Source of the DNA: Azolla caroliniana
Taxonomy: Eukaryota > Plantae > Polypodiophyta
NCBI GenBank assembly: GCA_043228905.1
Contig: JBHGNT010000010.1
Coordinates: 3,038,001-3,102,000, forward strand
Reading direction: 5' to 3'
Length of the DNA stretch: 64,000 nucleotides
In this document: positions 1-37,289 of the stretch, piece by piece
Layout of the letters: every line of letters starts with the position of its first letter
Numbering within the stretch: position 1 is the first letter of the stretch
Made by a program: the position numbers and the translations under genes
Notes under the pieces: generated by a model
Seen by the model: the letters and a program-made list of their open reading frames with translations, nothing else
What the model was told of the DNA's origin: nothing
Databases searched by the model: none

Positions 1-730
1 AAATAAGGATAAACCGTGCATTATGTACAATAACGAACCACTTGAAACTATGGAAAGCTCTAAATACCTTTGAGGTTCCTTTAAATCATAGATGGAATGA
101 ATATGCTTCCCACCGCTTAAAGGCAGGAAACATACCATTTTATGCATTTGAGAACACATGAAATCATGAAGAAATTAAGAGTTGGGTTCTCGAGAATTAC
201 CTTCTTGACAATTTGGTGTCACCAATGCTTCTCTATGGGGTGGAAGTATAGAGCGGTAGCATCCTTAAGTCCACTTGGAAATTGGTTGAAAAATGTCCCA
301 AAACATTTACATATAAAGTTTCTACAAGCCAAGAAACAAAAGTCATACACCCTCCCACTTATTGAGACAGGATCACTTCCCATTTAGATCATGGCCATGG
401 AAAGGGTTGTTAAATACATGCTTAAGTTTCATAATGTCCCTCACAACTACTGGGAATTGTATGGGAAGGATGCAAAAAGACCCAAAAGAAAAGAAAGAGC
501 AAAATTATGTGTTGTAATTGTATGCAAGATATGGAAAAATGGTTTGGAAGATGGGATGCAACACGCTTGCTTCATGATGCATCAATAGATTTTTTTGTAA
601 ATGAGATATTTTTTTTTGCTATGCTAATGTATCATGAAATGTGAAAAATATGGAGATTCATGCTTCACATACTATACCTACATATGTTGCATCTACCACA
701 AAACCATATTCTTCACCAAACAGTCACATT
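1..730 (+). mobile_element. Decayed non-LTR retrotransposon (LINE) ORF2, region C-terminal to RT
   Basis: Frameshifted fragments (KYLxxP..W, LYGVEVW-like, MAMERVVKYMLK) are homologous to the minus-strand LINE copy at 1320-3208. Confidence 0.65.
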
Positions 731-829
731 CTAAACTTGAACCTTTGACCTATAACACACCCAATACATAGTGTTAGATAAACCATATAGAAACCCTTAA
801 GTTACATATAAATTTGTATATGGTTTAAT

Positions 830-1045
830 ATTGTAAAGTCTAACATATAGTACATTCAGAATATTCTAGTCTTTAGTATATTCTAGGAATAGTCTATGGT
901 ATATTTTAGACGAGTATATTCTATATATATTTCTCAGGTATATTCTAGATATATTTCTCAAGTATATTCTAGACATATTCAATATCAGAACTTGTATAAA
1001 TATGCGTGTTCACCTGGATTACAATCAAGGTGAACAACACCAATT
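830..1045 (+). mobile_element. Fragment of a chromovirus-type LTR (same family as 38782-39212)
   Basis: TATATTCTAG repeat block and TGTATAAATA TATA box align by eye with 38890-39030. Confidence 0.65.
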
Positions 1046-1049
1046 ATAG

Positions 1050-1315
1050 TGTCGCGGTAATCCATGGGTACATGTCGAAACGGGGCGGGACCACTGGGGT
1101 CTTGAACCAGAGAGAGACGGAAGAGGGAAGACCGAGTTTCGCCAGTGCTGGATATGCCAGTTGTGACGCCGACAAGAGCATTTTCGGACTTGCACCGGAC
1201 GCAACCGAATGGGAGATAGATAGATTATATTATCGTCTTCGGAGGTCAAATATGACCTATGAGACCAAAAATATTACATTTCACGTGATACGTGTGAAAG
1301 TGAGTAGTGACTCTC
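1050..1315 (-). mobile_element. U5-end fragment of a Trp-PBS gypsy-family LTR
   Basis: Begins TGTCGCGG; GGGCGGGACCACTGGGGTCTTGAACC matches the U5 motif of the LTRs at 4308 and 10463; right boundary approximate. Confidence 0.55.
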
Positions 1316-1319
1316 GATG

Positions 1320-3205
1320 TTCAAGAACTTTACCAATGAATGTTGCAATCGAGAGTGCACATTGTGGTTGTTGAGAGGAATTCAAGCAAAGATTGGGCTC
1401 GGTTGAAGAGATGTGGAAAGCATGGTTGAATATGATCAAAGGCAAAGCATTGTATCAAAGTGTGATACTCAGACTCGCGAACTTGTCTAGGGCAAAGTGT
1501 GCATAGCCGACCACTCTCATCACTTGTGCCCCAACGCCCTGTTTCACATCGCAATGCATGTGAGCTAAGTCGCATGGAAGCAATGGTTCGAATGGTAGAT
1601 AACGGTATGGGCTCTAACATGTATCGATGTGTACGATTTCCCCATTCCACAAAGAATATGGTTTTGTAGTTAGGTGCAACATGTGTAGTATAATGTGTGA
1701 AGTGCTGTCGTGAAGATTCCGGGCCATGGTGAGAAAACAGGGAATATCGGAACAATCGACAAGGTGGAGCATGTGCAGTCACCCTTGTATAGATTGTGTA
1801 AACGATAGGGGCGCCATTAAGGCGCCGAACAGTAGTTAATTCGGGACAAAGGATCCCATGTAATAAGGGATTTATCCCACATTGTTACGCATCCCTCTCC
1901 TTGTTCTATAAAAGGAAGGGAGCGCCCTTTGTAAAGGGGTTGCCCATTTTGAGTTAGGAGGGTATACCGTTGGGTTTAGGGTTTGGTAGTTTTCTTCCTC
2001 TTCATCTTATTCTTAGGGTTTCTACTTTGGTCTTTCTCCCTATTTCGTTTAGGGTTTCATTTTAGTCTTCTTGATTGTCTCGTGGGTTTGGTCCATTCTT
2101 TCGGGTGGACGTTAGTATTCCGTTTAGGTTCTTCTTCTTGTGAGTGATCGTGCATGTTAGGGTTTATGCATTTGGGGTCTTCGGGTGTTAATCTCTCTTC
2201 TTCGTGTGAGAGTTTGGTTTTGGTTTGGGGTTTCTACAACAACGGCTCTTCGGCATTCCAGTTGCGGCACTTGGAGGTTCGGTTTCCTCTCCTCGATGGA
2301 GAGTGTTTCGCATGGCGGCCGATTCGAGAAGGGAGGGTGAAGTGGCACGAGAACAGTCCATCGTCTTCAGGGCGTGACCAACGATGGACGTCGCAGTCCC
2401 GGTGGCCCACTTGACTTGCCTTCGCCAGTTCCCATTCTTAACTTGTTGTATTAGCCTATTGATATGTAATAGCCATTGGATTCGGGCATGTAATCGTCTT
2501 GTTGTAAAACTCTTGTAATAAATATTCATGGTAGTGTATATCTATCTTCCTTGTAACATATTTCAGTCGGGTCCATATTCGCGGTGAACCGTCTTTTTGT
2601 GAAACCCTACACTCGTTGGAGCCGGAAGCCGATTCCAGACCGAAGCCTACAAAGCTTAAGGACTCCACCATCTGTCTCCCTAGTCCAAGACCCCCGCGGT
2701 CCCGCCTAAGATCCTACACGTACCAGCGGAATATCGCGACAACGCGAGCCTCCAAATTTGTCCCATGTCATGATACATTGGCGTTGCAAAAAGGCCTCAT
2801 TTATAGAGGAATCTAATGATGCATCATGAAGCAAGTGTCTCACGTCCCATCTACCATACCATTTTTCTATATCTTGCATCCAACTGGAACACAAAATTTT
2901 GCTTTTATGCATCTTTTGGATCTTTTTGCTTGCTTCCCACGCAATTCTAGGAAGTCGATGTGAGCGACTTTTTTGAACCTTAAGCATGTATTCAACAACC
3001 CTTTCAATGGCCATGATCTCAATGGGAAGCGATCTCGTCTCAAGGAGGAGGAGGGTGTAGGGTGTTTGTTTCTTAACTTATAGAAACTTTGTAAGAAAAT
3101 GTTTTTGGACATTTTCAAAATCTTTCCTCATAGATTTAGGGATGCTACCGTCCCATACTTCCACCCCATAGAGAAGAACCGGTGTCACCAAAGTGTCGAA
3201 AAGAT

Positions 3206-3208
<3 letters not shown>
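1320..3208 (-). mobile_element. 5'-truncated LINE ORF2 3' part with C-terminal zinc finger, split by a solo LTR
   Basis: ORF 1330-1782 has RLSSHALRCETGRW...RLCTLC...ESEYHTLIQC, the C-terminal CCHC motif of RTEX/CR1-like LINEs; homology continues at 2746-3208. Confidence 0.75.
1706..2741 (+). mobile_element. Solo LTR of the Trp-PBS gypsy group
   Basis: TGTCGTGAAG...ATCGCGACA termini, CTATAAAAG TATA near 1907, family U5 motif; degenerate 4-bp TSD GTGC/ACGC, consistent with the uninterrupted LINE copy near 655-670. Confidence 0.8.
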
Positions 3209-3271: not shown

Positions 3272-3916
3272 AATATGGTGGCTCGTCGATTTACTTTGAT
3301 TCGATTTATTTGAAGGTGTACAACCTTGGACAGAAATGATGGCTGTCAGGAACAGTACTAAGACATAAGGGCATGGGTTCAAATCTTGCCATATCATGAT
3401 ACTATCCCCGTTTTAAAACGACGAGTGTTACGAGTCGTTTTGGATTGAGGACCCGGTTTGTGTTGTTCGGCCGACAGATAGACAGTAGGGTCGAACGTGG
3501 AATATGAATGGATTATACTAGAGTAATCGTAACCTATGATATTGTATTTGTATTGTGATTCGACTATTTTAGTTAGTACAGTTATAGCAAAACAGAATTA
3601 TGGAGAACAATATTATCGACACAAGTGCTCAGAATTCCTATAACTAAAAACTATATTAACTGAAAACAGACAATAGTAGTACAATGCTTTCGGTTCCTTT
3701 TTTATAGGTAACCTAAAAGACTACCTTAACAAGAACTACATTTTGCCTTGTCGGCAAGAACTACAAAACTTACATATTCGTCATTACTATTTAATTGGCA
3801 AAACTGCTGACTCATTGATTCGCCTAGTTGATCCGACTCCGACTATGTAGTTTCCGAACATTGTCGACTTCGATGCTTTCATATTTGTCCGACTCATTTC
3901 CTAATCGGCTAACACT

Positions 3917-3931
3917 TGGCACGCCAGTGGG
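3917..3931 (+). other. PBS-like site complementary to the tRNA-Arg 3' end
   Basis: TGGCACGCCAGTGGG, 2 nt after the LTR end; resembles the TGGCACGCCC(A/G)GTGGGAC PBS of Tat-lineage elements. Confidence 0.6.
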
Positions 3932-6900
3932 CCAGGGCCTTGCCAGGTCAAACCCACGGTAACAGACTACTCTTGATGGTCGGGGTTAAGATCGTTGTCC
4001 ATTTCCTCCTTGTCGTTGTCTTGCAGAATGTTGAATAATGATGGTTCGACTTCGTTGTCGTTGTCAGTGTTGGTGTTGGTATCGTCATCGGCGTTCTTCA
4101 CATTAGTGTTGCGGTTTGAGGGTGGTGGTTGCGATGATGTTGGGTCTCCGAGCTCTGGTGTTTGATTTCTTCTGGTTTGTTCATGACCTTCTAACTAAAT
4201 AGAGGTGTCGATTTCATGCTTATCAAATTCTTGCATAAGTTGAGTTATTTCTTCTCGATGACTAGCTGACATATCATACAAATCTTTAGCAATATCCTCC
4301 TGTACGGTGTCAGGAAAATCCTCGCGGATGCGTAGAAGTTGGGCAAGACCACGGGGGTCTTGAACCAAGGAATCAAGAAGTGAGGAGGAAGAGTCTGTGG
4401 TTTATGTAAGTCTTGAGACCGCGGTTTAACAGAGAAGGTTAGTGAAACGAGAGGGAGAGTGTAAGAGGATCGTGTGTAGACATAGGCGCAGACAGAGATG
4501 CTGAGAACAACTTGCGTGAGGTAGATAAGTTTCTATTCATCAAAACATGCGCGTAGCGCTGTGGGTGATTACAATCGGATCAGTGCCGGTGATCGAGTGT
4601 AGAGCTCTACAGTAGTTAGATACAAAGGTACGTAGGCACGCATAAGGTCGATCCCCTGGTCGGGAGCACTCGGGCGTCTGATGCGAGTAGGGGAAGCGCC
4701 TTCCAGTGGTACGTCGTAGGACTCTTGGTCTCCCCTCGTCTCTGTTTCTTTTCTTCTCTCTTGATTACCCCCCCTTAAAACAGTCAAAGGTTGCGCCTTT
4801 TATAGCACAAGGAGCGACCGTTACAAAGCATTCATGAGGTCCTGTCGCTTTCCCTTCCTAGATTCTCCCCCCTGATTCGCTCTCCTCGTAACTCTCCCTA
4901 GTTACGCGATGTCTGAACCCCCATCAATGCCTTAACTATCTAGTACACCTCCTTCTACCTATGCCTAGTATTTACACTATTTAATTCACTAGGGGTGTGC
5001 ACTCGTGCACACCAGTGTTCTTGCGCGTTTCACGTTGTTTCCACCTATGGCCCGGATTCTTCACGACAACCACCCCCACTAAACCGCACATACTCCGATA
5101 TGTGCCGGGTCGTGAATTTAGTGAGGAATTCCGGGCCATCTGCTACTTGACCTCCCCTTTTGAACTTACGCTATCGACTCTCGGGTCTGGTTCCGCCTCG
5201 TTCTGCCTCATGAAGGCCTTTATCCGCTTCCCGGTCACCGGAGTCGTCATTCGGGTTCCGTCGAGCTTCGTGAGATGATATGTCGCGTTATCGTTGACGC
5301 TAATTACGAGGTATGCCCCGAACCATCGCTTCGTGAACTTACGCATAGACCTATGCTGGTTGTCGAGGCTGTTGTCGTAGACTAACACCCAATCGCCTTC
5401 CTCGATCTTCCTTGGCCGGAGCCGGTGTGTTCGGTCGAACCGGGCCTTGTTCCGGATTCTCGCTTCTTTCACCCTCGCCGTGGCCCGCTCCACGTCTTCC
5501 GGCCTTTGCTCGAGTTGCCAGATTCGGGCCGTTAGCAATTCTTCTTGGCTCTTTTCGTTGGCCCAATCGATCGCCGTCCACGAGGCGATCGTCCGCTCCA
5601 CTAGCATGATGGGTTTTTGTCCAAACATTAGTTCTGCCGGCATGTACCCTGTCACCGAACTATGGGTAGTCCTGTCCGCCCATAGGGTGTAAGGGAGCAA
5701 CCTCGGCCAGTCGCTAACTCGTCCTTCACACGCGCGTACAACGGCTTTTCGATCAGACCGTGGCCCCGCTCAATCTTTCCATTTGCCTCTGGGTTGTACG
5801 CCGTCATGAGGGACAATTTTACGCCTCTAGAACCGATCGAATAGTTCCTCGGCCTCTTCCGCGTCTAGCTCTCCTCGGTCAGCCACGATTTTTCCCACGC
5901 ACCCGTATCGGCATATGACATCTTCGATCAGAAACTTACATATTGCCGTAGTGATCTTGTTTGTTAGTGCCCGACCCTCTACTTGGTTCGTTAGGTCTTC
6001 TCTAGCCAGCACCAGGTATCGCTTCTGACCCTCTCCCATCGGCATAGTTACTAAGTCGACCATCCATTTGAAGTGCACGACCGGGGGGTATGTTGGGTGC
6101 AGCTCGTCACGGTGTCAAACCACCGAGTGCATCTGACAACTTTCGCATGTGGACACGAAGTCGTGCACGCTCTTATATATACCTGGCCACCAGTATTTCT
6201 CCTTTAACTTCTCGAATGTCGCCCATGTACCCCGGTGTCTAGACCAAGGGCTTTCGTGGAACTCTGATATTAGCTTCTCTTGATCATCTCCCCGCGCTAT
6301 TACCCAGAGCGGCGCGTCGTTTCACCTTTTTGGGACCGTCCAGATTTTCCCGTTCCGTATGAACCACAATGTACCGTTCTTCTTTGGTACCGTAAACCAC
6401 CAATTAGAGTAAGGGGCACTCGATGGTTTGAGGATGCCCAACTCCACCTTCTGCTTAAGAAGCTCTATCAACATTGGCATGTGAGCTCTCGATACTTGAA
6501 TCGGTTTGAGACTCCATGGCACGTGCAACACGGTAAAGATCACCATTAGTTCGACAATGGTCGGATCGACGCACCCGATCTCTCCTGGCGAGAATGCGAA
6601 GGCTTTCCCGTGCCTCTCGAGCATCCTTTTGAACTGGTCCTCTTCCGCCGGCAGTAGGAAGCCACCCCCACCGATCTTCAGCTGTCGTAGCATTTTGTCA
6701 ATGAAACGGTGTCCTATGCCGGTCGGATCTCGCAAGCTCGGGTCGGTAGCGACCCCCTTTATTCGTTCCTAGCTGCCCTTCGGTAAGGGAGCCGCGGTGG
6801 GCTTCACCTTTCGGTCCACAGTCTTGTACTTGGTGTCTACTCGGGCAATCCGATGCACTCTGGTTTTTCTTTCGAAGTCCGCAATGACTTCATACATGAC

Positions 6901-7134
6901 AACCGAGTTGACCGGTATGACTCGGTCTTCGCTTAGGCCTCCTTTGACTACCTTCCCAATTTCTCCAAGGGTGTCATCAAACGAGATCGCCTCCATGGCT
7001 TCCCCAATCCATTCGTCGTGACTCAAGGCTCCGCACGCCTTTAAGAGTATCTCGGCCCGTTTTCTTTCTTGGCCACTAATGTTGGCTACGGTACATCCCC
7101 TGTTGTCGGAGAACAAAACTTTCCTTCCTATTTT

Positions 7135-7206
7135 ACAGGTGTGGGGAATTCTCCGGCTATCCGGACTATCGCGGCCCCACGCCTTGATAGCCCTTTCTAA
7201 AAAACC
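7135..7206 (-). promoter_or_regulatory. Putative -1 ribosomal frameshift signal (G GTT TTT plus pseudoknot) between gag-PR and RT
   Basis: Heptamer lies immediately before the PR-ORF stop, the -1 frame is open into the RT leader, stems GGGCTATC/GATAGTCC and AGGCGTGGGG/CCCCACACCT; equivalent site at 29834-29905. Confidence 0.6.
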
Positions 7207-8598
7207 ACCTTGTCGTTATTTCCAAGGGTGTCCCTGTTCCACTCGTGATTCTTTCGGATGGTAAAAAATTGGATAGAATGACGGCCATCCTGACTTTTTA
7301 CCCTCGCATAGGTTGAACCATTGTGCAACACTTTCGTCTCCATTCTAGCCGCCATTATATATGGTTCACCGAGGATGACCGGGTGGGAGGACGTCTCTTG
7401 CACGAAAAAGTGTTAGTTTATATCGACGTCTCCGACACTCACCCTGACGTTTGGGCAAGCCCCGTGTAGTTCTTCCGTGGCTCTTGTAGCCGTGCGGATC
7501 TTCCACCTGTGTTTGGTGTTGATCCGCCAATTCCCCTTTTTGTAGAAGTCCATGGACATCAGGATAATTTCCGACCCGTGGTCGATTAATGCCACCACCG
7601 GTTCCTTCATGCCCCCGATACGAACCAGGGTTTCTATAGTCGCTCTTGCCCAGTGTGGCCTGGCGCAGTGGCACTTCGCAAGCTCGTCTTCCGCAGCCAT
7701 CTCGTCGAGTAGTGTCGTCGTTACCTCAACTGGCTTCTCGAGCTCCAGTTCCGTCGCGAGACGCTTTCTCTTCACGAGGTCCACGATGTTGTCGTGGAAT
7801 TCCCTTCTCGCTATGCCAAGCACTTCCCTAAGCGTGAGTTCTATGCGGATGTCGAGAACTCGCTCCTCTATAACCTTTTGTAGGTTCGTTGTTTTCTCGA
7901 TTTCCGAGCTTAAACGGAAGCTCGGAATCCTGCCCTTCTCCTTCTCCTAGGACCCGGTCGGAGTGCCGTCGTGCCTTTTGGGCACGGTTCAGGTGTCATA
8001 CCTCCTCGAAAGGCCCGCTCCCCCGGTTTTCCCCGCTCGCCTTTCGTCGATCAGGGCCTCGTAGTTCTTGCACGTGGCCTCCACAAAGCCGGTGCTCTCC
8101 TCAACGGGGTCACTCCAGCTGGTAACTTCGCGCACACGCTCCTTCGCGTGCTCCGCTTCTCCCTTTTGTAGCCTTCCTCCGGACAAGGTATTGAGAATAA
8201 CTGGCGAGAACCCAGGTTTTGAATTGGGTTTGGCTGCCTTTTCATCTACGCGGATGCCGGCCGAAGCCGAGTAGTGGATGGCTTCGACGTGCCGTGTTGC
8301 GGCCTCTTCCATTAGCCTCTTCATGCCACCTCGTCCGAAATTCGAGTCAAGCAATATCCGTGTCGCTCGCATGTATCCTGGCATTCGAAAGATAAACTAC
8401 ATTACTCCTCAACGCTTCACCGAGGTTAGCGCGATCTCTCCGAGCATGTCCGGTGGCGTCACACCATATGCACCTCTGATTGGCCGGCGGTCGCTGGTCG
8501 CGCGGCTGACCCTCGTCACTTCGTCGGGCCTGGGTGAACTAGAGGTCGCGCACCATCCTTGTTAGTTCTTCGAGTCCTGCGCCGCCTGCAGGTCCCGC

Positions 8599-9682
8599 TG
8601 TCGTGAAGATTTTCGGCAATGGTGTGAAAATCGCATAAAACATCCAAAATCGAGTATGAATCATATAAAACAATAATAGTGAAAATACTATTTTAGATAA
8701 GTTTAATATCTTAGTACAAAAAAGATGGAGGTCTTCAAGAGCTTTCGAATGCAACTTACTACATAAGAAACGGACATCTAAATCTCAAGTTATGTGGGTA
8801 GGAAGTTTGCAAAGGAAAAGAGAAAAATAAAACTGTGAAATATCTCACATAGAAAGGAAAAGTTTAGGCCCAACTATATAAGCAGATTGAGATCGATCAT
8901 AATTCATCTATGTGTTAAGAGCACATAAGAAATAGTTGGACTTGAGCCACTTTTGTCTAGATGGACATATGTGGCTAAATCGCCGAATGTGGCTAAGTGC
9001 CCGAACCGGTTGGTGAGGAAACTCAAATCGGCTGACGATAGAACTGGAAACCGGATGCATCTGGCATCCGGCGACCGGATAGATATATAAATAAATATAT
9101 ATATGTATACAGAAGGAGTGCAAGTATGGATTTGAACCTTGCACCTCCAAGTTGAGAGTTTATAGGCTTACCACTAAGCCAAGACATTTTCTTGAAATAA
9201 TATTTTTTCATTGTAACTTTACATGTAAATTCTCATACATGAGAGCTAAAATGAGTGACGTGGTTATCATGCACCACATGTAATACATGAGCGCCAAATG
9301 GCAAACATGCATTTTATGCATGTCTTGAACCCTCAAATGCATGAGGCCATCTATAAACGAGGGGATGAAAAAGATCAAAGGGGGATTTAGTAATGTAAAA
9401 TTCTTATCCAGAGCTTTGTACTTTATATCAAAATTAATATTAAAAAGAAAATTTGTTATCCTTTTGATGATATACCTTGTTCTTCAAATCTAAAGTCAAG
9501 AGTTCAACCTTAATCTCTCTCTCAATCTAAAATCAAGCGTTCTATCTTATCTCAATCTCTCTCTCTTTCAATCTATCTTAAATCCTTTCTCACTAAAGCT
9601 AGCGCCAACTTCGAATCCTTCCGGTCCAGAACCCCGACGGTTCCACCTCACGATCCGCGCGTAGTGACGGATCTTCACGACA
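8599..9682 (+). mobile_element. Solo LTR (1084 bp) of a related Trp-PBS gypsy family inserted in gag
   Basis: Perfect 12-bp terminal inverted repeat TGTCGTGAAGAT/ATCTTCACGACA, perfect 4-bp TSD CCGC, family-like U5 end. Confidence 0.88.
9113..9186 (-). promoter_or_regulatory. tRNA-like Pol III type-2 promoter module inside the LTR
   Basis: A box TGGCTTAGTGG (9171-9181) and B box GGTTCAAATCC (9128-9138), 32 bp apart. Confidence 0.6.
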
Positions 9683-10440
9683 CCGCGACTACGTTTGCCG
9701 AGGGTGGGCCTAGCTCGAGCCACCTCCTCGTTTCTTCCATTCGGGTCGACGTCGGCTCGGCTCTGGTTTTGATAGCTGGTTCGGCCGGCGAGGACCCCTT
9801 TTCTTTCCAATCTCGGCATTTGTCAATCCTGCTGCATACTTCTTTGACGGTCGACTAGTTAGTCGTGAGACCGCGGTTGGTTTCAAGAAGAAGACCCACG
9901 CTTTCCTGGACGCGCAAGTCGAACGACATAACGAAAAATAGGATTTTGCTCGTTTCGAGCACGGTTCGGTCCAATCTAAAGAGCCGCAGGAACCATGACT
10001 CGAACTCCTTGAGGAGCGCCGAAGCGTTCTGACCCTTGTCGGGGCTGTTGACCCAATCCATAAAGTCCTTTCTCGATAGCCGGAGCGAGTCGTCGTAGCT
10101 GTACCTTTCGAGAACTTCCTCCGCGAATTCCGCCCAATCGCGGCAACTTGCTTGTATTTCGGCCATCTCTTTATGGATGTGTGGTGTCACAACCCGGGGA
10201 AACCCCGTTAGCCATCTATCCTCGGGTATATTCCTCATCTGCATTTCAGATTTGTAGGCCTCTAAGTAACTCGTGGCGTCTTTTCCACTGAACCAGCCTA
10301 TCTTGTCGACCGTTGCTTCTATGGTCTTGTCGAGGGCCCTCGCGCCCTCGAGAGTGCTAACCAGGAGGTCTACCGCCACCGCCATGATTGCTTCTGCAAG
10401 TTCGCTCCCTCTCGTTTTTCAGATTCCTTTGCCGCCCCTT

Positions 10441-10458
10441 TTCACATCGGGTTCACCA
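10441..10458 (-). other. Primer binding site, tRNA-Trp
   Basis: Minus strand reads TGGTGAACCCGATGTGAA, complementary to the plant tRNA-Trp 3' end (..TTCACGTCGGGTTCACCA, recalled) with one mismatch. Confidence 0.85.
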
Positions 10459-11227
10459 AATATGTCGGGAATATCCTCGCGGATGCGTAGAAGTTGGGCA
10501 GGACCACAAGGGTCTTGAACCAAGGAATCAAGAAGTGAGGAGGAAGAGTCTGTGGTTTACATAAGTCCTGAGACCGCGGTTAAACAGAGAAGGTTAGTGA
10601 AACGAGAGGGAGAGTGTAAGAGGATCGTGTGTAAACATAGGCGCAAACAGAGATGCTGAGAACAACTTGCGTGAGGTAGATAAGTTTCTATTTATCAAAA
10701 CATGCGCGTAGCGCTGTGGGTGATTACAATTGGATCAGTGCCGGTGATTGTGCGTGGAGCTCTACAGTAGTTAGATACAAAGGTACGTAGGCACGTAGAA
10801 GGTCGATCCCCTAGTCGGGAGAACTCGGGCATCTGATGCGAGCAAGGGAAGCGCCTTCCGGTGGTACGTCGTAGGACTCCTGGTCTCCCCTCGTCTCCGT
10901 TTCTTTTCTTCTCTCTTGATCACCCTTCCTTATAACAGTCAAAGGTTGCCCCTTTTATAGCACAAGGAGCGACCGTTACAAAGCATTCATGAGGTCCTGT
11001 CGCTTTCCCTTCCTAGATTCTCCCCCCTGATTCGCTCTGCTCGTAACTCTCCCTACGTACGCGATGTATGAACCCCCATCAATGCCTTAACTACCTAGTA
11101 CACCTCCTTCTACCTATGCCTAGTACTTACACTATTTAATTCACTAGGGGTGTGCACTCATGCACACCAATGTTCCTGCGCGTTTCACATTGTTTCCACC
11201 TATGGCCCGAAATCTTCACGACAATGG

Positions 11228-12500
11228 TGGATATTGCTTCCTCTATCATTTTGAAGAATCCTGGCCCCTATTTTTTTCGGTTATCTCTGTCGGCATGCGA
11301 GATTTGTAATTCTATTGCCTGTGTTGACCATGTCTTCCATCCTCTGTCGAGTGAGTCGGATACCAGTTTTAGAGTGTTGAGGTTATGGCGATTTAGTATT
11401 GCTCTGATTTTTTCTTCGCCCATACTCGCATGGTATTGTGTTGCGGCCAGTTGCTTGTGTAGATCTGTTAAATGTGCATTGGTTGCTCCTTCTGCTTGCA
11501 TGAGCTGTGCTTCGGCTACCAATAGGTCGAGTCTTTTATTTTCATACCTAGCTTCTATTTCGGTGCAGCGGATTTGTAAATTAGAATTCGTTGATTCCCA
11601 TTGTCGCTTTCTTCTGCATGCACCTCTTGTGTTGTTGTAGCTTTGAGTTCGGCTTCGGCCATTTGGGTAACAAAATAATATTCCTGAATGTGCACATATT
11701 CTTCTAACTCAAGTATCTGTTCCTCCTGTTGTTTTTCCTCTTGTTGTTGCGCTAACTGTCGTTTGAGCCGTTGTATTGCTTTGTCTTTTGCCTCCAGCCA
11801 TTTACCGATTTCTATTTTGGCCAATAGTAGACACTCTTCTCCCTTCTTGACTCTCGTTTCGGCTTCCTCTGCCAAGGCTCTTGTAGTTCCGATTGTTGAT
11901 TCAGCTTCAGACGCGGAAAGTCTGTCAGGTACTTTGTGTGCAAGCAATTGGTCTTTGGCCTATTTCAATTTTTCTTCTGTTTGTCAGAGTTTCTCTGACA
12001 ACTCATCTTTCTCGGCTTGCATTCTTTTACATTTATCGTTTAATACATCCGACGTTGCCGTTGCGTTTTTATATAATTCAGCCATATCTCTGGCTGCTCT
12101 GGCTGCTCTGTTTGCTCGTTCATATTCCCTATGGACTTCTACCACATGTAAAGGAGGCATTTGGATGGCTTCTCCCCTGTTTTTGGCATTGCGTTGTCGG
12201 CTGATTCGGTCAACTTCCTATTGTTCTTCCGGTTCAACCGCGCCAATCAATGACTTTTGGATCATGATTCGATCCTTGTGTTCTTGTGTCATTCTTTCTG
12301 ACACTTCCTGTAATCTATGTGCTAACCATTCTACCAATTCATAGGAAGTAACGAATTGTAGAATGGTTGCCAGCTCATGCGCCGCCGGATGAATTTCGGA
12401 AAAGCCTAATGCTTCCCGAGGACTCGTGACTGATGATTTTCCTTTTTCAATCCGACTTGTGTCCTCTGGGTTGACAGGAATCTCCGTTTTAGGTTGTTCA
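11228..12500 (-). pseudogene. Disrupted coiled-coil-rich ORF of the 3461-12735 element (continues at 3967-4303)
   Basis: E/K/Q/A-rich heptad-like fragments in ORFs 11268-11522 and 11555-11947; reading continues across the gypsy insert; no gag or pol motif recognised. Confidence 0.55.
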
Positions 12501-12539
12501 TCCGTTCTTTGCTTTTTTCTTAGAGATTCTTCTTGCTCG

Positions 12540-12583
12540 TCCTATTCAAGGGATTATGGGTTCGAGTCCCACCGGGCCTGCCA
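12540..12583 (+). other. ~44-nt copy of the tRNA-Arg 3' half including CCA (extended PBS on the minus strand)
   Basis: TCCTATTCAAGGGATTATGGGTTCGAGTCCCACCGGGCCTGCCA vs plant tRNA-Arg(UCU) 3' half TTCTAATCAAACGATTGTGGGTTCGAGTCCCACCGGGTGTG+CCA (recalled); 10 nt from the LTR. Confidence 0.72.
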
Positions 12584-12736
12584 AAATTTACTGTGTTGTT
12601 CGGCCGACAGACGACTCTCGATGACCGATAGACAGTGGGGTCGAACGTTCTATCAAAGAACTGTGGAATACGAATGGATTATACTAGATTAATTGTAACC
12701 TACGATACTGTATTTGTATCATGATCGACTATTTTA

Positions 12737-12993
12737 GTGGAGAATATCCGCCCAATCATGTTGGTGATAGCTTAGAAAACACCGAAGATACTGTTCCAGT
12801 GTTTGATTTGTTTGTTCTGCTTGTCCGTTTGTGTGCGGGTGGTAGCTGGAGGAGAGGTTACAAGTGACCTTGAGCATTTTGAAGAGGTGCTTCCAAAATT
12901 TCGAGACGAACTGAGGTCCACAGTCACAGATGATACTATCGGGGAGGCCACGATGCCGACATACCTCACGCATGACAGTTTCGGTGGTTTCTT
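12737..12993 (-). mobile_element. Chromovirus (Tf2/Tcn1-like) integrase core fragment
   Basis: RHRGLPDSIICDCGPQFVSKFWK...SSYHPHTNGQAEQTNQTLEQYLRCF. Confidence 0.85.
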
Positions 12994-13255: not shown

Positions 13256-13904
13256 AATTACAATAAAAAGAGATATATAGATAGATAGATTATATTATCG
13301 TCTTCGGAGGTCAAATATGATAGAAGACAAAGGAGAACCAAAACCCCAAAGCATTCGAGCTCTGATCCGACTAGAGGCTCACTGATGTGTGTGTGGGTGT
13401 GTACGGAGCTCGAAGCTCTGATTTCGGCCTGAGGACGCTTGTATTCTTCTCTGTCATTAAGTAAATATTTGGTATTGTTGCGTCAGGCCTCTCTCTCGCA
13501 CTACGTTGTTTCAACATCGTATATCTCTGTTTCTGAGCCCATGTGCTCATTTCCGGAATCCGGTGATAGGGCTTTGTGCTTAGCTAAGAACTCTGGTGAC
13601 CTAGCCAGATATTTGTGGCAAGCTTAGTAGCCTCTTTGCCTCCGACTCCCTAGTCCAAAAACCCCGTGGTCCCGCCTGATCCGACACGTACACGTGGATA
13701 TCCGCAACATCTTTGGTGAACCCGACATGAAGGGGCGGCAAAGGGAGCTTCAGGATGAGGGGAATCGAGCTCGCGGAAGCGATGGTGGTAGTTGTTGGCC
13801 ACCTAGTGAATGCTCGAGAGAGCTCTCCCGGCCTCGATAGGGCAATTGAGAACATAGTTAGCACGACATGCCGATTTAATGGAAAAGATGTCTCGAGCTA
13901 TTTG

Positions 13905-30600: not shown

Positions 30601-31634
30601 GTCGACTGCCCCTTATTCAAATTTGTGGTTTACGGTGCCAAAGAAGAAAGGTTCACTGCACTTCATTCAGGACCTGCAACCGATCAACAAAGTGATCATT
30701 CGAAATGCAAGAGTTGGACCGACGATTGAAGAGTTCGCGGAGGCCTTCGCCGGAAGGTCCATATAATCAGTCGGGGACTTATACTCGGGGTACGACCAGT
30801 TCCACCTAGCCATCAAAAGCAAGGACATCACGACGATGTAAACCCCTCTTGGCCTAGTTCGGATCTGTACCCTACCGCAAGGAGGGACCAATTTGGTGGT
30901 GCACATGGTGAATACGATTAACAAAGTGTTGAGGGACTGCATCCCGGGCATCACCATGCCATTCCTGGATGACATTCCAATCAAGGGATGTCTGGAGGAC
31001 GCGAAGGACGAATCGATCGGAACAAACGGATGTCGTAGGTTTTTCACGGACCACATCACCGACTGCGAGAAGATACTGCAGAGGCTCGAGGACGCTCGGT
31101 TTACCTTCTTCGGGGAGAAGTCGACTTTCGAACAACCGGTGATCCTAGTGGTTGGCCACCTGTGCGGTCCATATGGCCGGAAACCATCCACGGCAAAGGT
31201 AGAAGCTAACTCGGCTATGAAGGAAAAATGTGGGTCGGTAACCGAAGTCCGATGATTCTTGGGGGCGTGCCCCTTCTACCACATTGGGATTCCGCACTAC
31301 GCCCATATCGTCGAGCCACTCTATGGCTTCCTGAAGAAAGAACGGAAATTTAAATGGGGCATAGAACACGCGGAAGCAGTCCAAAGACTAAAGGAGATGT
31401 TGATTGTCACGGACACACCAAGCGTGGACTAGGACAGAGCACAAGGCTAGAAGACAGAGAGAGCTAGAACTAACAAGGCTAGAAATGAGACAAAGATAAA
31501 GATCAATGAGACAAGACGGGGTGAAACGAGAATACTAGATTGATGTGTCAATGACTGGTGTTGAATCCCTTGAAAGTGTTGGGAGACAGGTCCCTCCGGA
31601 TGGGAAGGGAGAAGAATAATGCCGATGAACTGTA

Positions 31635-31850
31635 TGAGGAGTACCCGGCTACGGAGAGCCGGATGGTGCAGGCCCAGTATGAACCGGATGAGTACCCGGC
31701 TACGGAGAGCCGGATGGTGCAAGCCCGATATGAACCGGATGAGGAGTACCCGGCTACAGAGAGCCGGATGGTGCAGGCCCGGTATGAACCGGATGAGGAG
31801 TACCCGGCTACGGAGAGCCGGATGGTGCAGGCCCGATATGAACCGGAGGA
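31635..31850 (+). repeat. 54-bp tandem repeat (4 units) in U3 of the 5' LTR
   Basis: GAGGAGTACCCGGCTACGGAGAGCCGGATGGTGCAGGCCCGGTATGAACCGGAT unit. Confidence 0.92.
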
Positions 31851-32337
31851 AGAGACATATTTGTAAATATGTTTCTGAGAGCCCATTGTGGCTATATTTG
31901 TAAATAGCCGAAAAGTCATATTAGTATAAATATGACTTAGGGCAAACTAATATTTGTGGTTGTTACTTTTCTTGTTGGTGCAAGAAGAAGTGAGAGCACG
32001 TAATAGTGTACAGAGAGAGAGAGAGAAAGAAAGAGGTCGTTGCCTCTGTTGTAACCGCCGCCTGTGGCGAAGAGCGTGAGTCCGAGGTCGTTGCCTCCGA
32101 GAACTCACTGTTATGTACATTCATACACAGTGACAGTTTGCAGCCTGTGGGCTGCCGTGGTTTTTCCCCTAGTTTGGGGTTTTCCACGTAAACCTCCTGT
32201 GTATTCTCTCCTTCTTTGTGTCGCGTTTTATTTCCCATTTTTCTGTGTATCATTCTAAGCTCGGTTGTGGCCAAGCGTTGCGCATAAGGAACGTCCAGTT
32301 CCCGTCAAGTGGTATCAGAGCGAAATTGACACAGAAA

Positions 32338-35300
32338 ATGGACGAATCGTTTGGCGGCATGTTCAAGCTCACCGGCTCCAACTATTCAATGTGGAAGTCG
32401 AAGATGAGGGACATGCTCGTTGTTAAAGACCTCTGGCTGCCGGTTCAGTTCGGGGACAAGAGACCGGACAAAATCGACGCCGCGATATGGGAGGTGATGC
32501 ACATGAAGACAACGGCATACATATGGTGCTTCATCGACATGAGCCTATACAACAACTTCAATGAAGAGAGCAAGGCTCATGAGCTCTGGGAGAAGATCGA
32601 CATAATGTTCCAGAACAAAAATGTTGTCAATCAGGTGTCGGTATTCCGGAAGCTAGTAAGACTCCGGTACCAAGATGGCTCCAGTATGGCGGAGCACATG
32701 AATGCCTTCCAGGGGCTGATACACCAGGCAACATCATTGGAAGTACCTCTGGCCGATGAGGTACTAGCGCTGCTCCTGCTCGGTTCCCTCCCGGATAGCT
32801 GGGAGACGCTGGTTGTCACTTTGGGCAACGCCGGGCCGGAAGGAAAACGGTTATCCCTAGCAAGAGTAAAGTCGAGCTTGCTAGATGAGGAGGCGCGTCG
32901 GAAAGACAAAGATACGAGCTCCGACTCCAAAGCGCTTCTTACCGAATCGGAACGCGGAAGACAAAGAAACCGTAGTCCCCAGAACCGGGAGAAGTCGGGG
33001 ACACGGTCAAAGTCAAGGGGGAGGCCTACTTGCTTCTATTGCGGCAAGCCGGGACACTTCCAAAAGAACTGTCGGAATTTCCGTAAAGACAAGGAAACCG
33101 ACGGTACCGATTCGAAGCAAACCCCGGACCGGAACAGTAAAGACCGGAACGGTAAAGACCGGAAGGGAACGACGGCAATCGCGGCAAGTGAAGAAGAGTT
33201 GATGCTCATCACCGAGGAGAGTGAAATAAACCTTGCCGGCGACGAGATGACCTAGGTGGTAGACTCCGGAGCGTCGTTCCACCTTACCCCGGACCAGAAA
33301 TGCTTCTCATCCTACTCAACCGGTGATCACGGCTGTGTCCGGATGGGGAATGAAGGTACATGCCGAATTGTCGGCATGGGAGACGTGTGGCTGACAACAC
33401 CAACCGGATGCAAGATGCTGCTGAAGGATGTCCAACACGTTCCGGAAGTTCGTCTGAACCTGATATCAGCCGGTCGGCTAGATGATGAAGGCTACACGGG
33501 TAGCATCCGGAATGGTGTCATGAAGTTCAGCAAAGGGAGCCTGATTGTGGCTCGGGCCCGGAAGGTAAACACACTGTACCTGATGAATGCTCGGTTATGT
33601 CCGGAAGAAGTGAACGTGGCATCCGACACTACCGGTGAGCTGTGGCACAAGAGGCTGTGTCATATGAGCGAGAAGGGGATGAAGAGGCTTGCAGATGACA
33701 ACCTCATTCCAGTGAAGAACGTGCACTTGGAGAAGTGCACTGATCGTCTGGCCGGTAAGCAGAACCGGACCTCCTTCTGATCAAGGCCACCGATGAGACG
33801 TAATGCACCACTGGAGTTGGTGCATACGGATGTGTGTCAAGTAGACATGAAGTCACATGCCGAAGCGCAGTACTTCGTGACGTTCATAGATGACCACAGC
33901 CGGAAGCTGTGGGCCACACCGCTGAAGACGAAGGATCAGGTGTTATCCGTCTTCAAAGAGCTCCACGCGAGAGTGGAAAGAGAAACCGGCCAGAAGCTGA
34001 AGGCGGTTCGAGCAGATAACGGAGGAGAGTACCGGGGGCAGTTCGAGGAGTACTGCCGCTCGAAGGGAATCCGGCTCGAATTTACCGTGCCGAAGACGCC
34101 GGAACTAAACGGACTGGCCGAGAGGATGAACTGGACCATAATGGAGAGGGTCTGGAGTATGCTAGCGCATGCAAAACTACCCAAGAAGTTTTGGGCTGAG
34201 GCACTGTCGACGGCGACATATGTGATTAATAGATCACCCTCAATACCCTTGGACGGAGACACGCCACAGAGAGTGTGGACCGGTAAGGAAGTATCCTACC
34301 GGCATCTGAAGGTGTTCAGGTGTTTCGCGTACGTGCATGTAGCTAAGGACCGGAGAGGAAAGCTAGATCCAAAGACCCGACCATGCATATTCCTCGGTTA
34401 CGGTGACGATGAGTTCGGCTACCGAGTGTGGGACCCAGTCGACAAGAAGGTATTCCGGAGTGGAGATATTATCTTCATGGAGAACAAGACGCTCGCCGAC
34501 TAGGAGTCGGAGAAGAAGATAATGAACTCCGAGTCGACCGGTAAGGATAGACTCTACGATGAGCAGACCCAACCGGCAAGAGACCGGTTAGCACTCGAGG
34601 AACCAGCCGGTTACGGTGAGGATACCGAACCGGTAGAAGAAGAGGTAGAGGAAGCTGAGACCAGAACCGGCCAAGACCCCGAATCGGATTCGGATGAAGA
34701 GCAAATGGAGGAGCCGGTCACCGAAGCCCAGAGACGGAGATATCCTCTCAGAGAGAGAAGGGCCCCCCGGAGATTTCCGGATGCAGAGCATGTTCTGCTG
34801 ACCGATGAGGGGGAGCCGGAAAGCTTCGAAGAAGCGAAGGAAGACACCCACAGCCGAAAATGGTTGAGTGCCATGCAGGACAAGATGGATTCCCTGCATG
34901 AGAACCATACATACGAATTGGTGGAGTTGCCGAAAGGAAAGCGGGCACTCCGAAACAAGTGGGTGTACAAGTTGAAACCGGGAGATGCCGGCAACCCCCC
35001 GAGATACAAAGCCAGGATCGTGGTGAAGGGGTTCCAGCAGAAGAAGGGCGTGGACTTCGACAAGATATTTGCCCCGGTAGTAAAGATGACCTCCATCCGG
35101 ACGGTGTTGAGTATAGCAGCAAGCATGGACCTCGAGGTAGAGCAGCTGGACGTGAAGACAGCATTCCTTCACGGTGACCTCGAAGAGGAGATCTACATGC
35201 AGCAACCGGAAGGATTTGTGAAGAAAGGGAAGGAGCACCTGGTATGCCGGTTGAAGAAGAGCCTATACGGACTCAAGCAAGCTCCCCGGCAATGGTACCG

Positions 35301-36383
35301 AAAGTTCGACTCCTTCATGACCGATCAAGGGTACCACAAGACGCAGGCCGATCACTGCGTGTTTGTGAAGAAGTTCAAAGGAGGAGACTTCCTGATACTC
35401 CTCCTGTACGTGGATGACATGTTGATCGTCGGACAAGACCAAGTAAAAATACGGATGCTGAAGAAGGCTCTCAACTGGACCTTCTCAATGAAAGACTTGG
35501 GTCCGGCAAGACAGATGCTGGGGATGCACATCATTCGAGACCGGTTAAAGAAGCAACTATGGCTGTCACAAGAGAAGTATGTGACAAAGGTGCTTCATCG
35601 GTTCAACATGTCAGAAGCGAAACCGGTCGGATCGACACTTCCGACAAACTGCAGGTTGTCCGGTAAGCAAAGCCCGAAGACGAAAGCAGAGAAGGCAGAT
35701 ATGATGAAGATTCCATATGCCTCTGCCGTCGGGAGCTTGATGTACGCAATGGTATGTACCCGACCGGACATAGGATACGCAGTCGGAGTGGTGAGCCGGT
35801 TTATGAGCAATCCCAGCAAGGAGCACTGGAACGCGGTCAAATGGATACTCCGGTATTTGAAGGGCACTTCAAATATGTGTCTCCGATTCGGCTCCGGAAA
35901 ACCTCAACTAGACGGTTTCACCGATTCAGACATGTCGGCTGATGTGGATACCAGCCGGTCTACATCCGGGTATGTGATGACATATGCAGGGGGAGCTGTT
36001 TCGTGGCAGTCGAGGCTGCAAAAGACGGTTGCATTGTCAACCAAAGAGGTGGAGTACATGGCGGCTGTGGAAGCCGGCAAGGAAATTTTATGGATGAAGG
36101 ACTTCATCGGAGAGCTCGGTATCCGGCAAGAGGAATACCGACTCTACTGCGATAGTCAAAGTGCCATCCACCTTGCTAAGAATGCGGCCTACCATTCCCG
36201 GACGAAGCATATCCAGCGGAGGTATCACTGGATCCAGGAAAGAGTAGATGACCAGGAGTTCGCACTGACGAAGATCCACACGGCCGAGAACGGGTCAGAT
36301 ATACTGACCAAAGTGCTGACACCCGACAAGCTGGACGCATGCCGGAAGCGGATCGGACTGGTAAGACACCCATGCCGGAGTGA
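32338..36383 (+). pseudogene. Copia gag-pol with three premature stops and a terminal 1-nt deletion
   Basis: Stops at 33253 (TAG vs TGG in the intact relative), 33778 (TGA) and 34501 (TAG vs TGG); zinc knuckle, DSGA protease, integrase, YVDD RT and RNase H all present. Confidence 0.93.
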
Positions 36384-37289
36384 AGGGGGAGTTTGTTGGG
36401 AGACAGGTCCCTCCGGATGGGAAGGGAGAAGAACAATGCCGATGAACTGTATGAGGAGTACCCGGCTACGGAGAGCCGGATGGTGCAGGCCCGGTATGAA
36501 CCCGAGGAAGAGACATATTTGTAAATATGTTTCTGAGAGCCCATTGTGGCTATATTTGTAAATAGCCGAAAAGTCATATTAGTATAAATATGACTTAGGG
36601 CAAACTAATATTTGTGGTTGTTACTTTTCTTGTTGGTGCAAGAAGAAGTGAGAGCACGTAATAGTGTACAGAGAGAGAGAGAGAGAGAAAGAGGTCGTTG
36701 CCTCTGTTGTAACTGCCGCCTGTGGCGAAGAGCGTGAGTCCGAGGTCGTTGCCTCCGAGAACTCATTGTTATGTACATTCCTACACAGTGACAGTTTGCA
36801 GCCTGTGGGCTGCCGTGGTTTTTCCCTTAGTTTGGGGTTTTCCACGGAAACCTCCTGTGTATTCTCTCCTTCTTTGTGTCGCGTTTTATTTCCCATTTTT
36901 CTGTGTATCATTCTAAGCTCGGTTGTGGCCGAGCGTTGCGCATAAGGAACGTCCAGTTCCCGTCAGAAAGGGACCAAGGATGTTACAAGTATTTATTCAA
37001 TTTCTGAGATTGAATATCTCTAGAATATACTCGAGAAATATCTCAAGAATATACCGTGACAGAATAATTCTAGAATATATTAACGACTAGAATATTCTCA
37101 ATCGCTCTACTTCTAGTTTCGGTGGGGGTCACAACCACTCACTTTCCTAGTAGGAATTGCGTGGGTTTCTCGCTAGCGCTACCGTTTGTGTTGTGTCTTG
37201 GGTCAACCTCAACTATTTACCCTCTCATAATAGAAGAAGTCGAGTCGACCGCTTCACTTGCACTCCTTCGCCCGTTGTTGTTCTAGTTC

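Follow-up and report, generated by a model that had tools for sequence, protein, structure and literature searches.

An Azolla Ty3/gypsy retrotransposon family with a tRNA-Arg-like cassette in place of the polypurine tract and putative tRNA priming of both DNA strands

Plus-strand priming from an RNase H-resistant polypurine tract (PPT) is, to our knowledge, near-universal among long terminal repeat (LTR) retroelements. Minus-strand priming varies and includes half-tRNAs, self-priming and split sites, and the primer-binding site (PBS) for the transfer RNA (tRNA) usually lies 1–3 nucleotides (nt) from the LTR end. Here we describe an LTR element in a stretch of 64,000 nt from Azolla caroliniana (contig JBHGNT010000010.1, positions 3,038,001 to 3,102,000 of the forward strand; this whole stretch is called the window, and coordinates count from its first letter), in which a tRNA-Arg-like sequence occupies the position expected for a PPT. 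The closest described systems are the plant non-chromovirus Ty3/gypsy elements, whose OTA superclade comprises Athila and Tat/Ogre/Retand, and also Phygy and Selgy (Neumann et al. 2019, PMC6317226). The PBS is of the tRNA-Arg type in TatIII, Ogre and part of Retand and of the tRNA-Asp/Asn type in Athila, and Phygy and Selgy are tabulated there with a tRNA-Trp or tRNA-Ala PBS and no extra open reading frame (ORF) (PMC6317226). The primer sites of Ty1 and Ty3 are split and base-pair with the T-arm of the tRNA (PMC5371799). In defective HIV-1 proviruses, plus-strand synthesis has copied into the primer tRNA and then switched to a downstream site, resulting in a deletion (PMC12657518), and a minor strong-stop at the modified A37 has been described (PMC13191261).

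The family described here has no PPT, and a sense copy of the tRNA-Arg 3′ end, located two bases before the 3′ LTR, may let a second host tRNA-Arg prime the plus strand, a reading to which we assign a probability of about 0.5. On the minus strand of the window, the element is arranged as 5′ LTR, spacer of 8–9 nt, PBS of 13 nt, gag-pol, extra ORF, tRNA-like cassette, 2 nt and 3′ LTR, an order assembled from overlapping relatives; a single intact element was never seen. The element in the window belongs to a non-chromovirus Gypsy family and is a dead copy with an internal deletion. A preliminary description of the window had noticed tRNA-end-like motifs at both inner LTR junctions, and these were confirmed at 2 nt from the LTR on the left and 8 nt on the right; the two sites are, however, different things, the right one being the true PBS and the left one a cassette at the PPT position.

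The relatives used for comparison are metagenome contigs, a scan of which gave 103 confirmed stretches, 80 loci being kept. The last 170 residues of the extra ORF are matched in 33 of the 80 loci, and 12 relatives reach more than 100 nt beyond the expected stop. The cassette is present in 11 of these 12; the twelfth (L010) has lost the cassette and the start of the LTR by deletion, and there is no PPT there either. In the 11 loci and the window, it consists of the 5′ half of a T-stem followed by TTYG, an inner hairpin of 4 bp, CCCAC, a 7-nt acceptor-like strand, CCA, 2 nt and the TG of the LTR, and the distance from the CCA/CTA end to the LTR is fixed at 2 nt in all 12 sequences. None of these 12 cassette-bearing sequences has a PPT at the 3′ LTR, the longest purine run within the last 20 nt being at most 3 nt. 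The retention of the cassette in 11 of 12 relatives, together with the lack of longer purine runs, makes the missing PPT a family trait. For comparison, an A/G tract is plainly visible before the 3′ LTR of a copia element in the window, while a Gypsy element nested in the window copy shows no more than a G-rich tract containing a run of 5. The preliminary description had reported that no purine tract adjoins either window LTR and that the PPT position carries a sense tRNA-Arg 3′-end motif; the former is confirmed, and the latter is a conserved feature of the family. It had further named a normal PPT in other copies, or an unconserved motif, as grounds for abandoning its proposal, and the relatives show neither.

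Conservation within the cassette is concentrated on its tRNA-like parts. Column identity averages 0.90 over the 12 sequences, against 0.50 just upstream and 0.56 slightly inside the LTR, which argues that the cassette is not a chance resemblance; the approximately 350 nt upstream are only 50–89% identical among the same sequences. The conserved letters are those held in common with the tRNA T-arm and acceptor end, and the inserted hairpin varies in sequence with its pairs kept. Two of the four inner pairs display compensatory changes, one being A-U in 5 sequences and G-C in 7, the other U-A in 2 and G-C in 10, and the covariation score was reached by 0 of 500 shuffles, a figure that is not a probability, the sequences being related. 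The outer stem has compensatory change at none of its 5 pairs and retains the tRNA letters. In L003, the last 10 nt of the cassette are identical to the tRNA end implied by that locus's own PBS.

The window copy comprises the following features.

3459–3914, minus strand: 3′ LTR of 456 nt; read on the minus strand, it starts with TGTTAG and ends with AACACA, and it holds a TATA motif at about 3696–3707 (minus strand).
3915–3916, minus strand: spacer from the cassette CCA to the LTR TG, 2 nt in 12/12 sequences, AG in 10.
3917–3957, minus strand: tRNA-like cassette at the PPT position, with the T-stem 5′ half and TTYG, the inner 4-bp hairpin, CCCAC and an acceptor-like strand ending in CCA.
3967–4307, minus strand: C-terminal piece of the extra ORF, approximately residues 777–890 of an intact relative, with one in-frame stop and the stop codon at 3969–3967 (tblastn with the intact ORFs of L040 and L050).
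4308–11223, minus strand: nested, unrelated, Phygy-like Gypsy element, LTRs 94% identical, tRNA-Trp-type PBS, 4-bp target-site duplication (TSD) ACGG/ATGG.
11224–12545, minus strand: middle piece of the extra ORF, approximately residues 343–779, coiled coil, interrupted by stops and a frameshift and lacking the first ~345 residues.
12546–12570, minus strand: read-through copy of the primer tRNA-Arg, approximately tRNA positions 39–63, joined to the ORF with 1–4 nt of overlap; single-copy.
12571–12583, minus strand: true PBS of 13 nt, tRNA-Arg type, position shared with L003 and L040.
12584–12591, minus strand: spacer from the 5′ LTR end to the PBS, 8 nt here and 9 nt in L003 and L040.
12592–12738, minus strand: 5′ LTR remnant (U5 side), severed by foreign integrase sequence.

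The LTRs (3459–3914 and the remnant 12592–12738) are direct repeats, as had been claimed, with 106 of 114 aligned bases identical and three gaps, and the 3′ LTR shows 78–81% identity, counted over aligned bases, to the complete LTRs of L003 and L040. The element had been bounded at 3461 and 12735; the element stands, and its exact ends are corrected to 3459 and 12738. Likewise, the two motifs, TGGCACGCCAGTGGG starting at 3917, two bases beyond the left LTR, and CCCACCGGGCCTGCCA starting at 12568 and ending 8 nt short of the right LTR, are real sites whose extents had to be revised, the left motif being part of the 41-nt cassette (3917–3957) and the right match covering 38 nt (12546–12583). No purine tract adjoins either LTR. 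The right LTR ends abruptly at 12738, where a piece of another element's integrase adjoins, and therefore no TSD can be read for the outer element. The minus-strand coiled-coil ORF is broken, being split by the nested element, and the window retains approximately residues 346–887 of it. This ORF had been regarded as the only coding content, which is correct for the window copy but not for the family, where it corresponds to the C-terminal 60% of an extra ORF on the 3′ side of gag-pol in an autonomous element.

The genomic strand is established by the relatives. In all 12 loci that have gag-pol, the gag-pol matches lie on the strand of the extra ORF, and the LTR TATA motif is found on that strand in 5/5 loci and in the window, and never on the opposite strand. 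A whole LTR in L003 (447 nt) and L040 (454 nt) is followed by a 9-nt spacer and then by a 13-nt tRNA-Arg PBS, matched at 12 of 13 bases in both, with gag after the PBS in L003. The strand of gag-pol, the TATA motif and the order of LTR and PBS in L003 and L040 thus identify the window minus strand as genomic, the right site as the PBS and the left site as the PPT position. Replication from either strand, as envisaged in the preliminary description, is contradicted by these strand counts. The candidate in which the plus-strand motif would be the real PBS, with an antisense extra ORF, was ruled out by the LTR–PBS order in L003 and L040 and by the gag-pol strand.

The organism's own sequencing runs (four runs, from at most 3 samples and 3 studies) were mapped to the region. 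The element is multicopy in these runs, and the joint from 4305 to 11231, which skips the nested insert, is seen in 4/4 of them. Diverged run contigs span 3904–4304 and 3907–4219, that is, the ORF end, the left motif and the first LTR bases; their LTR side over the left junction is under 31 nt, and hence they were not counted as formal bridges.

At the right site, the PBS is 13 nt long in the relatives, and the tRNA-Arg match of the window runs for 38 nt, CCA included. The window PBS is extended by 25 further bases of tRNA complement, to approximately tRNA position 39, and is fused at approximately codon 343 of the extra ORF; the loss at this junction is about 6.8 kb, summed from P0018 (the closest polyprotein), L003 and L040. 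The extension is absent from 80/80 relatives. Read depth over 12545–12576 is tens of times the single-copy level, the run contigs bridging the ORF into the tRNA piece have single-copy depth, and other copies in the runs depart from the window at 12543, carrying on with the ORF. At position 12544, runs X1 and X2 have G, the ORF letter of the other copies, which places the ORF/tRNA junction at about 12546. A diverged LTR copy in X2 and X3 (14–15 differences) starts at 12571, consistent with a common short site. The long right-hand tRNA match is thus a one-off accident and not the design of the family.

The identity of the copied tRNA was approached through loose ends that lie before 12542 in two of the runs, X2 (2 contigs) and X5 (10 contigs), and carry a tRNA D-arm and the 5′ strand of an anticodon stem; this strand pairs with 12546–12550, and the anticodon is TCT. 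On a reading of these ends and on general tRNA anatomy, they are assigned to tRNA-Arg(UCU). ARAGORN detected no tRNA genes, either in the window or among the 80 loci, and Rfam gave no significant tRNA match for either the left or the right site. A 44-nt tRNA copy with a CCT anticodon was considered and ruled out, since the ORF of the other copies continues through 12543–12546 and the tRNA-gene-like contigs give TCT. Because the 38-nt copy carries real tRNA sequence, a host tRNA rather than the element's own cassette would have primed the minus strand of the window copy.

The spacing of the PBS is also unusual, at 8–9 nt from the LTR end (window 12584–12591; L003:2366–2374; L040:4877–4885), which may point to the trimming of a long overhang at integration. 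At L006:1697, the same 13-nt tRNA-Arg PBS and its following bases stand behind an unrelated LTR with a spacer of only 3 nt. Moreover, among the loose ends at 12546–12586, each of the four runs has 2–4 diverged contigs in which a stretch of this tRNA 3′ end is followed by AAA and an unrelated sequence starting with TG, so that at least one other LTR family in the genome has a tRNA copy beside an LTR terminus.

In the mechanism that we propose, a host tRNA-Arg(UCU) would prime the minus strand at the PBS, and RNase H would then clear the template, exposing the complement of the cassette in minus-strand DNA. A second tRNA could pair with this complement through its last ~10 nt and, on either side of a hairpin that loops out, through T-arm boxes of 5 nt and 9 nt, an arrangement resembling the split primer sites of Ty1 and Ty3 (PMC5371799); the left border of the LTR would be fixed by the CCA end of this tRNA, 2 nt away. 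As for the window copy, plus-strand strong-stop DNA is postulated to have been extended along the primer tRNA as far as its anticodon loop and then to have switched to the extra ORF, with the loss of ~6.8 kb, and a Phygy-like element would have invaded the copy later. In evolutionary terms, we regard it as an evenly balanced proposition that a Gypsy lineage of non-seed plants gave up its PPT and primes both strands with host tRNA-Arg, the mirror-image site having been acquired from read-through into a tRNA and later reduced to the T-arm and acceptor boxes.

Several observations weigh against this proposal. The evidence for the plus-strand primer is indirect, and the relatives are short contigs, all of one accession series and possibly collapsed repeats. 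The cassette ends in CTA instead of CCA in 2 of 12 sequences, a G-to-A change lies 8 nt from its end in 3 of 12 (one subfamily), and the window cassette departs from the tRNA end found at the PBS at two bases, the 6th and the 10th counted from the 3′ end, so that the copied tRNA would pair over only 5 contiguous bases, unless another isodecoder is used. When the tRNA piece is paired in prediction with the complement of the cassette, the result surpasses shuffles only modestly (fraction 0.003–0.08, ≤0.05 in 10/12), and the calculation used RNA:RNA energies and is partly circular. The U-G/U-A pattern at two hairpin pairs suits folding of the sense RNA better than folding of the minus-strand DNA. 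Furthermore, at least 7 of the 12 sequences have purine runs of 5–9 nt whose ends lie 43–47 nt upstream of the LTR.

The folding pattern bears directly on an alternative that we consider rather unlikely, in which the cassette RNA itself is the plus-strand primer, i.e., a tRNA mimic within the genomic RNA that is spared by RNase H and cut just after CCA, in effect a non-purine PPT. The cassette shares the position and the 2-nt offset of a PPT, its sense RNA forms the hairpin with compensatory changes in the inner stem and U-G pairs that become U-A in 4/12 sequences, and such a primer would be indifferent to the mismatch between the window cassette and the primer tRNA; in addition, the cleavage specificity at the PPT is fitted to each element's own reverse transcriptase (RT) (PMC5371799). 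However, the absence of compensatory change in the outer stem (0/5 pairs), with the tRNA letters kept, is what sequence-specific pairing with a tRNA predicts, and the hairpin would have to unwind into an RNA:DNA hybrid during minus-strand synthesis.

The upstream purine runs invite another explanation, in which plus-strand synthesis begins ~45 nt from the LTR, just upstream of the hairpin, at a purine run that is displaced and degenerate, and the cassette either pairs with the PBS, for RNA circularisation or dimerisation, or guides strand transfer or end trimming. The end of the cassette is indeed complementary to the PBS over up to 10 nt, and with the PBS already 8–9 nt from the LTR end the integrase may well trim long overhangs. 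Nevertheless, the window has no such run; where it occurs, it falls on acidic codons and the stop codon, and it is not a conserved feature (column identity 0.50). In L040, where PBS and cassette are on one contig, the cis pairing is mismatched after 7 bp, and we hold this explanation to be distinctly improbable. The same complementarity, and the PBS-like appearance of both inner LTR junctions, speak for the suggestions of the preliminary description that the cassette might prime in cis, here the minus strand, or that the element might replicate from either strand. Self-priming is opposed by the PBS, which agrees with the tRNA at position 12, where the cassette differs, and by the read-through of the window copy, which copied a real tRNA and not the cassette; replication from either strand is opposed by all coding content and the TATA motif lying on one strand, and the chance of either is very small. 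It is just as improbable that the left motif is a one-off rearrangement or a chance match in a family with a normal PPT: the locus is old, deleted and nested, and its right-hand extension is truly one-off, but the cassette recurs in 11/12 diverged relatives and a PPT at the LTR in 0/12, so that this account survives only if all contigs are misassembled alike. Priming of the plus strand by a second host tRNA-Arg is the reading that we prefer.

Apart from plus-strand priming, the element works as an ordinary Gypsy element does, and it is assigned here to no named clade. As in other Ty3/gypsy elements, the LTRs in the window are direct repeats of the form TG...CA, the RT–RNase H (RH)–integrase (INT) order is present in relatives (L030, P0018) and deleted in the window copy, and a 13-nt PBS lies just 3′ of the 5′ LTR, 8–9 nt from its end; the PPT just 5′ of the 3′ LTR, typical of "most" elements, is lacking. 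The closest polyproteins, P0017 and P0018, are 83–85% identical to the integrase of L009 (P0018, of 1830 residues, at 83%), and the nearest named ones are from Adiantum (49%) and Riccia (45%). P0018 has the order GAG-RT-RH-INT without a chromodomain. The second, archaeal-type RNase H (PF13456) is absent from the precomputed Pfam domains of the closest polyproteins and present in distant matches; the lack of this additional RNase H argues against membership in Tat. A quick unrooted RT-RH tree, built from 59 rows with more than 330 aligned RT-RH residues out of 120 proteins and containing no labelled reference sequences, places the family beside proteins from Riccia and Cryptomeria and some unnamed ones, outside both Tat and a Rhodiola/Cannabis group (SH-aLRT 91). 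The RT insertion of the Rhodiola and Cannabis relatives, which we take to be "Athila-type", is missing from the closest polyproteins. The tRNA-Arg PBS and the 890-residue extra ORF exclude Phygy and Selgy, as tabulated in PMC6317226. The polyprotein matches and the Phygy-like nested element agree with a probable host among non-seed land plants.

The extra ORF is intact at L040:1706–4375 and L050:2059–4794, where it encodes, in sense orientation and 3′ of the integrase, a protein of ~890 residues (887–890 among the relatives) with a long coiled coil and a conserved middle domain. Its 15 homologs (ENA only) are 39–72% identical, several reaching further N-terminally than the start of the window's ORF, and the N-terminal domain that is missing from the window copy was found in 40/80 loci. 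There was no Pfam match above the curated cut-off. Look-alikes in the atlas are unnamed Streptophyta proteins at 0.90–0.91; the N-terminal domain gave weak leads to DUF1985 and the plant mobile domain at 0.87–0.88, and the middle domain had no atlas look-alike at or above 0.9. Scans of viral contigs and of prokaryote genomes produced no match.

The window also harbours several other elements. The nested Gypsy element (4308–11223) has an NCGN-type 4-bp TSD and a tRNA-Trp-type PBS, which are Phygy features (PMC6317226), and contains a solo LTR at 8599–9682 in opposite orientation with the TSD CCGC. At 198–3206, long inverted repeats (~460 nt, 79% complementary) surround fragments resembling a long interspersed nuclear element and possibly represent a DNA transposon. 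A young, apparently intact Copia element at 43458–48904 has LTRs 99.5% identical, one ORF of 1371 residues and a normal PPT, and an older relative lies at ~31600–36970. A perfect 42-nt direct repeat (1214–1255 and 13279–13320), its copies 12 kb apart, flanks the element cluster.

With a natural lineage of several subfamilies that carry a tRNA end where a PPT would be expected, the question whether plus-strand synthesis by an RT can begin on a tRNA or a tRNA mimic becomes open to direct test; annotation programs guided by PBS and PPT may also assign such elements the wrong orientation. The window copy is a fossil record in which a real tRNA appears to have primed the minus strand and to have been over-copied to the anticodon loop. 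A literature search, with most of its coverage outside subscription journals, turned up no account of a tRNA end standing in for the PPT, and the titles and abstract openings covered do not mention plus-strand priming by a tRNA.

With the plant non-chromovirus Ty3/gypsy elements, the family shares GAG-RT-RH-INT without a chromodomain, a tRNA-Arg PBS and a large extra ORF 3′ of pol, and it differs in the sense orientation of that ORF, in a 13-nt PBS placed 8–9 nt from the LTR and in the lack of a PPT, in so far as these traits are covered by PMC6317226. The tRNA-Arg PBS of part of the Tat clade is matched here, but the additional archaeal-type RNase H ascribed to Tat is not, and the PBS of Athila is of the tRNA-Asp/Asn type in contrast to tRNA-Arg (PMC6317226). 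Helenus (TRIMp3; Kojima 2024, PMC10886601) is likewise an LTR element with a tRNA-like sequence; there, however, the sequence is described inside both LTRs with PBS and PPT kept, whereas here a 3′-end fragment stands outside the LTR, at the PPT site, in an autonomous family. In the self-priming elements Tf1 and Tcn1, the PBS is complementary to the element's own RNA, whereas in the window copy it runs on into host tRNA sequence. The defective HIV-1 proviruses offer a close parallel to 12546–12583, as their PBS is extended by 7–54 nt of copied tRNA-Lys3 and joined to a downstream internal site; this parallel accounts for the right junction of the window copy only and not for the cassette of the family (PMC12657518). 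As in the canonical priming of Ty3 and HIV-1, the minus strand is apparently primed by a tRNA and a primer site lies 2 nt from the left end of the LTR (PMC5371799, PMC13191261). In Ty3, the 3′ segment of the PBS is complementary to the tRNA and serves minus-strand initiation (PMC5371799), whereas the 3′ cassette of the Azolla family has the same sense as the tRNA and replaces the PPT.

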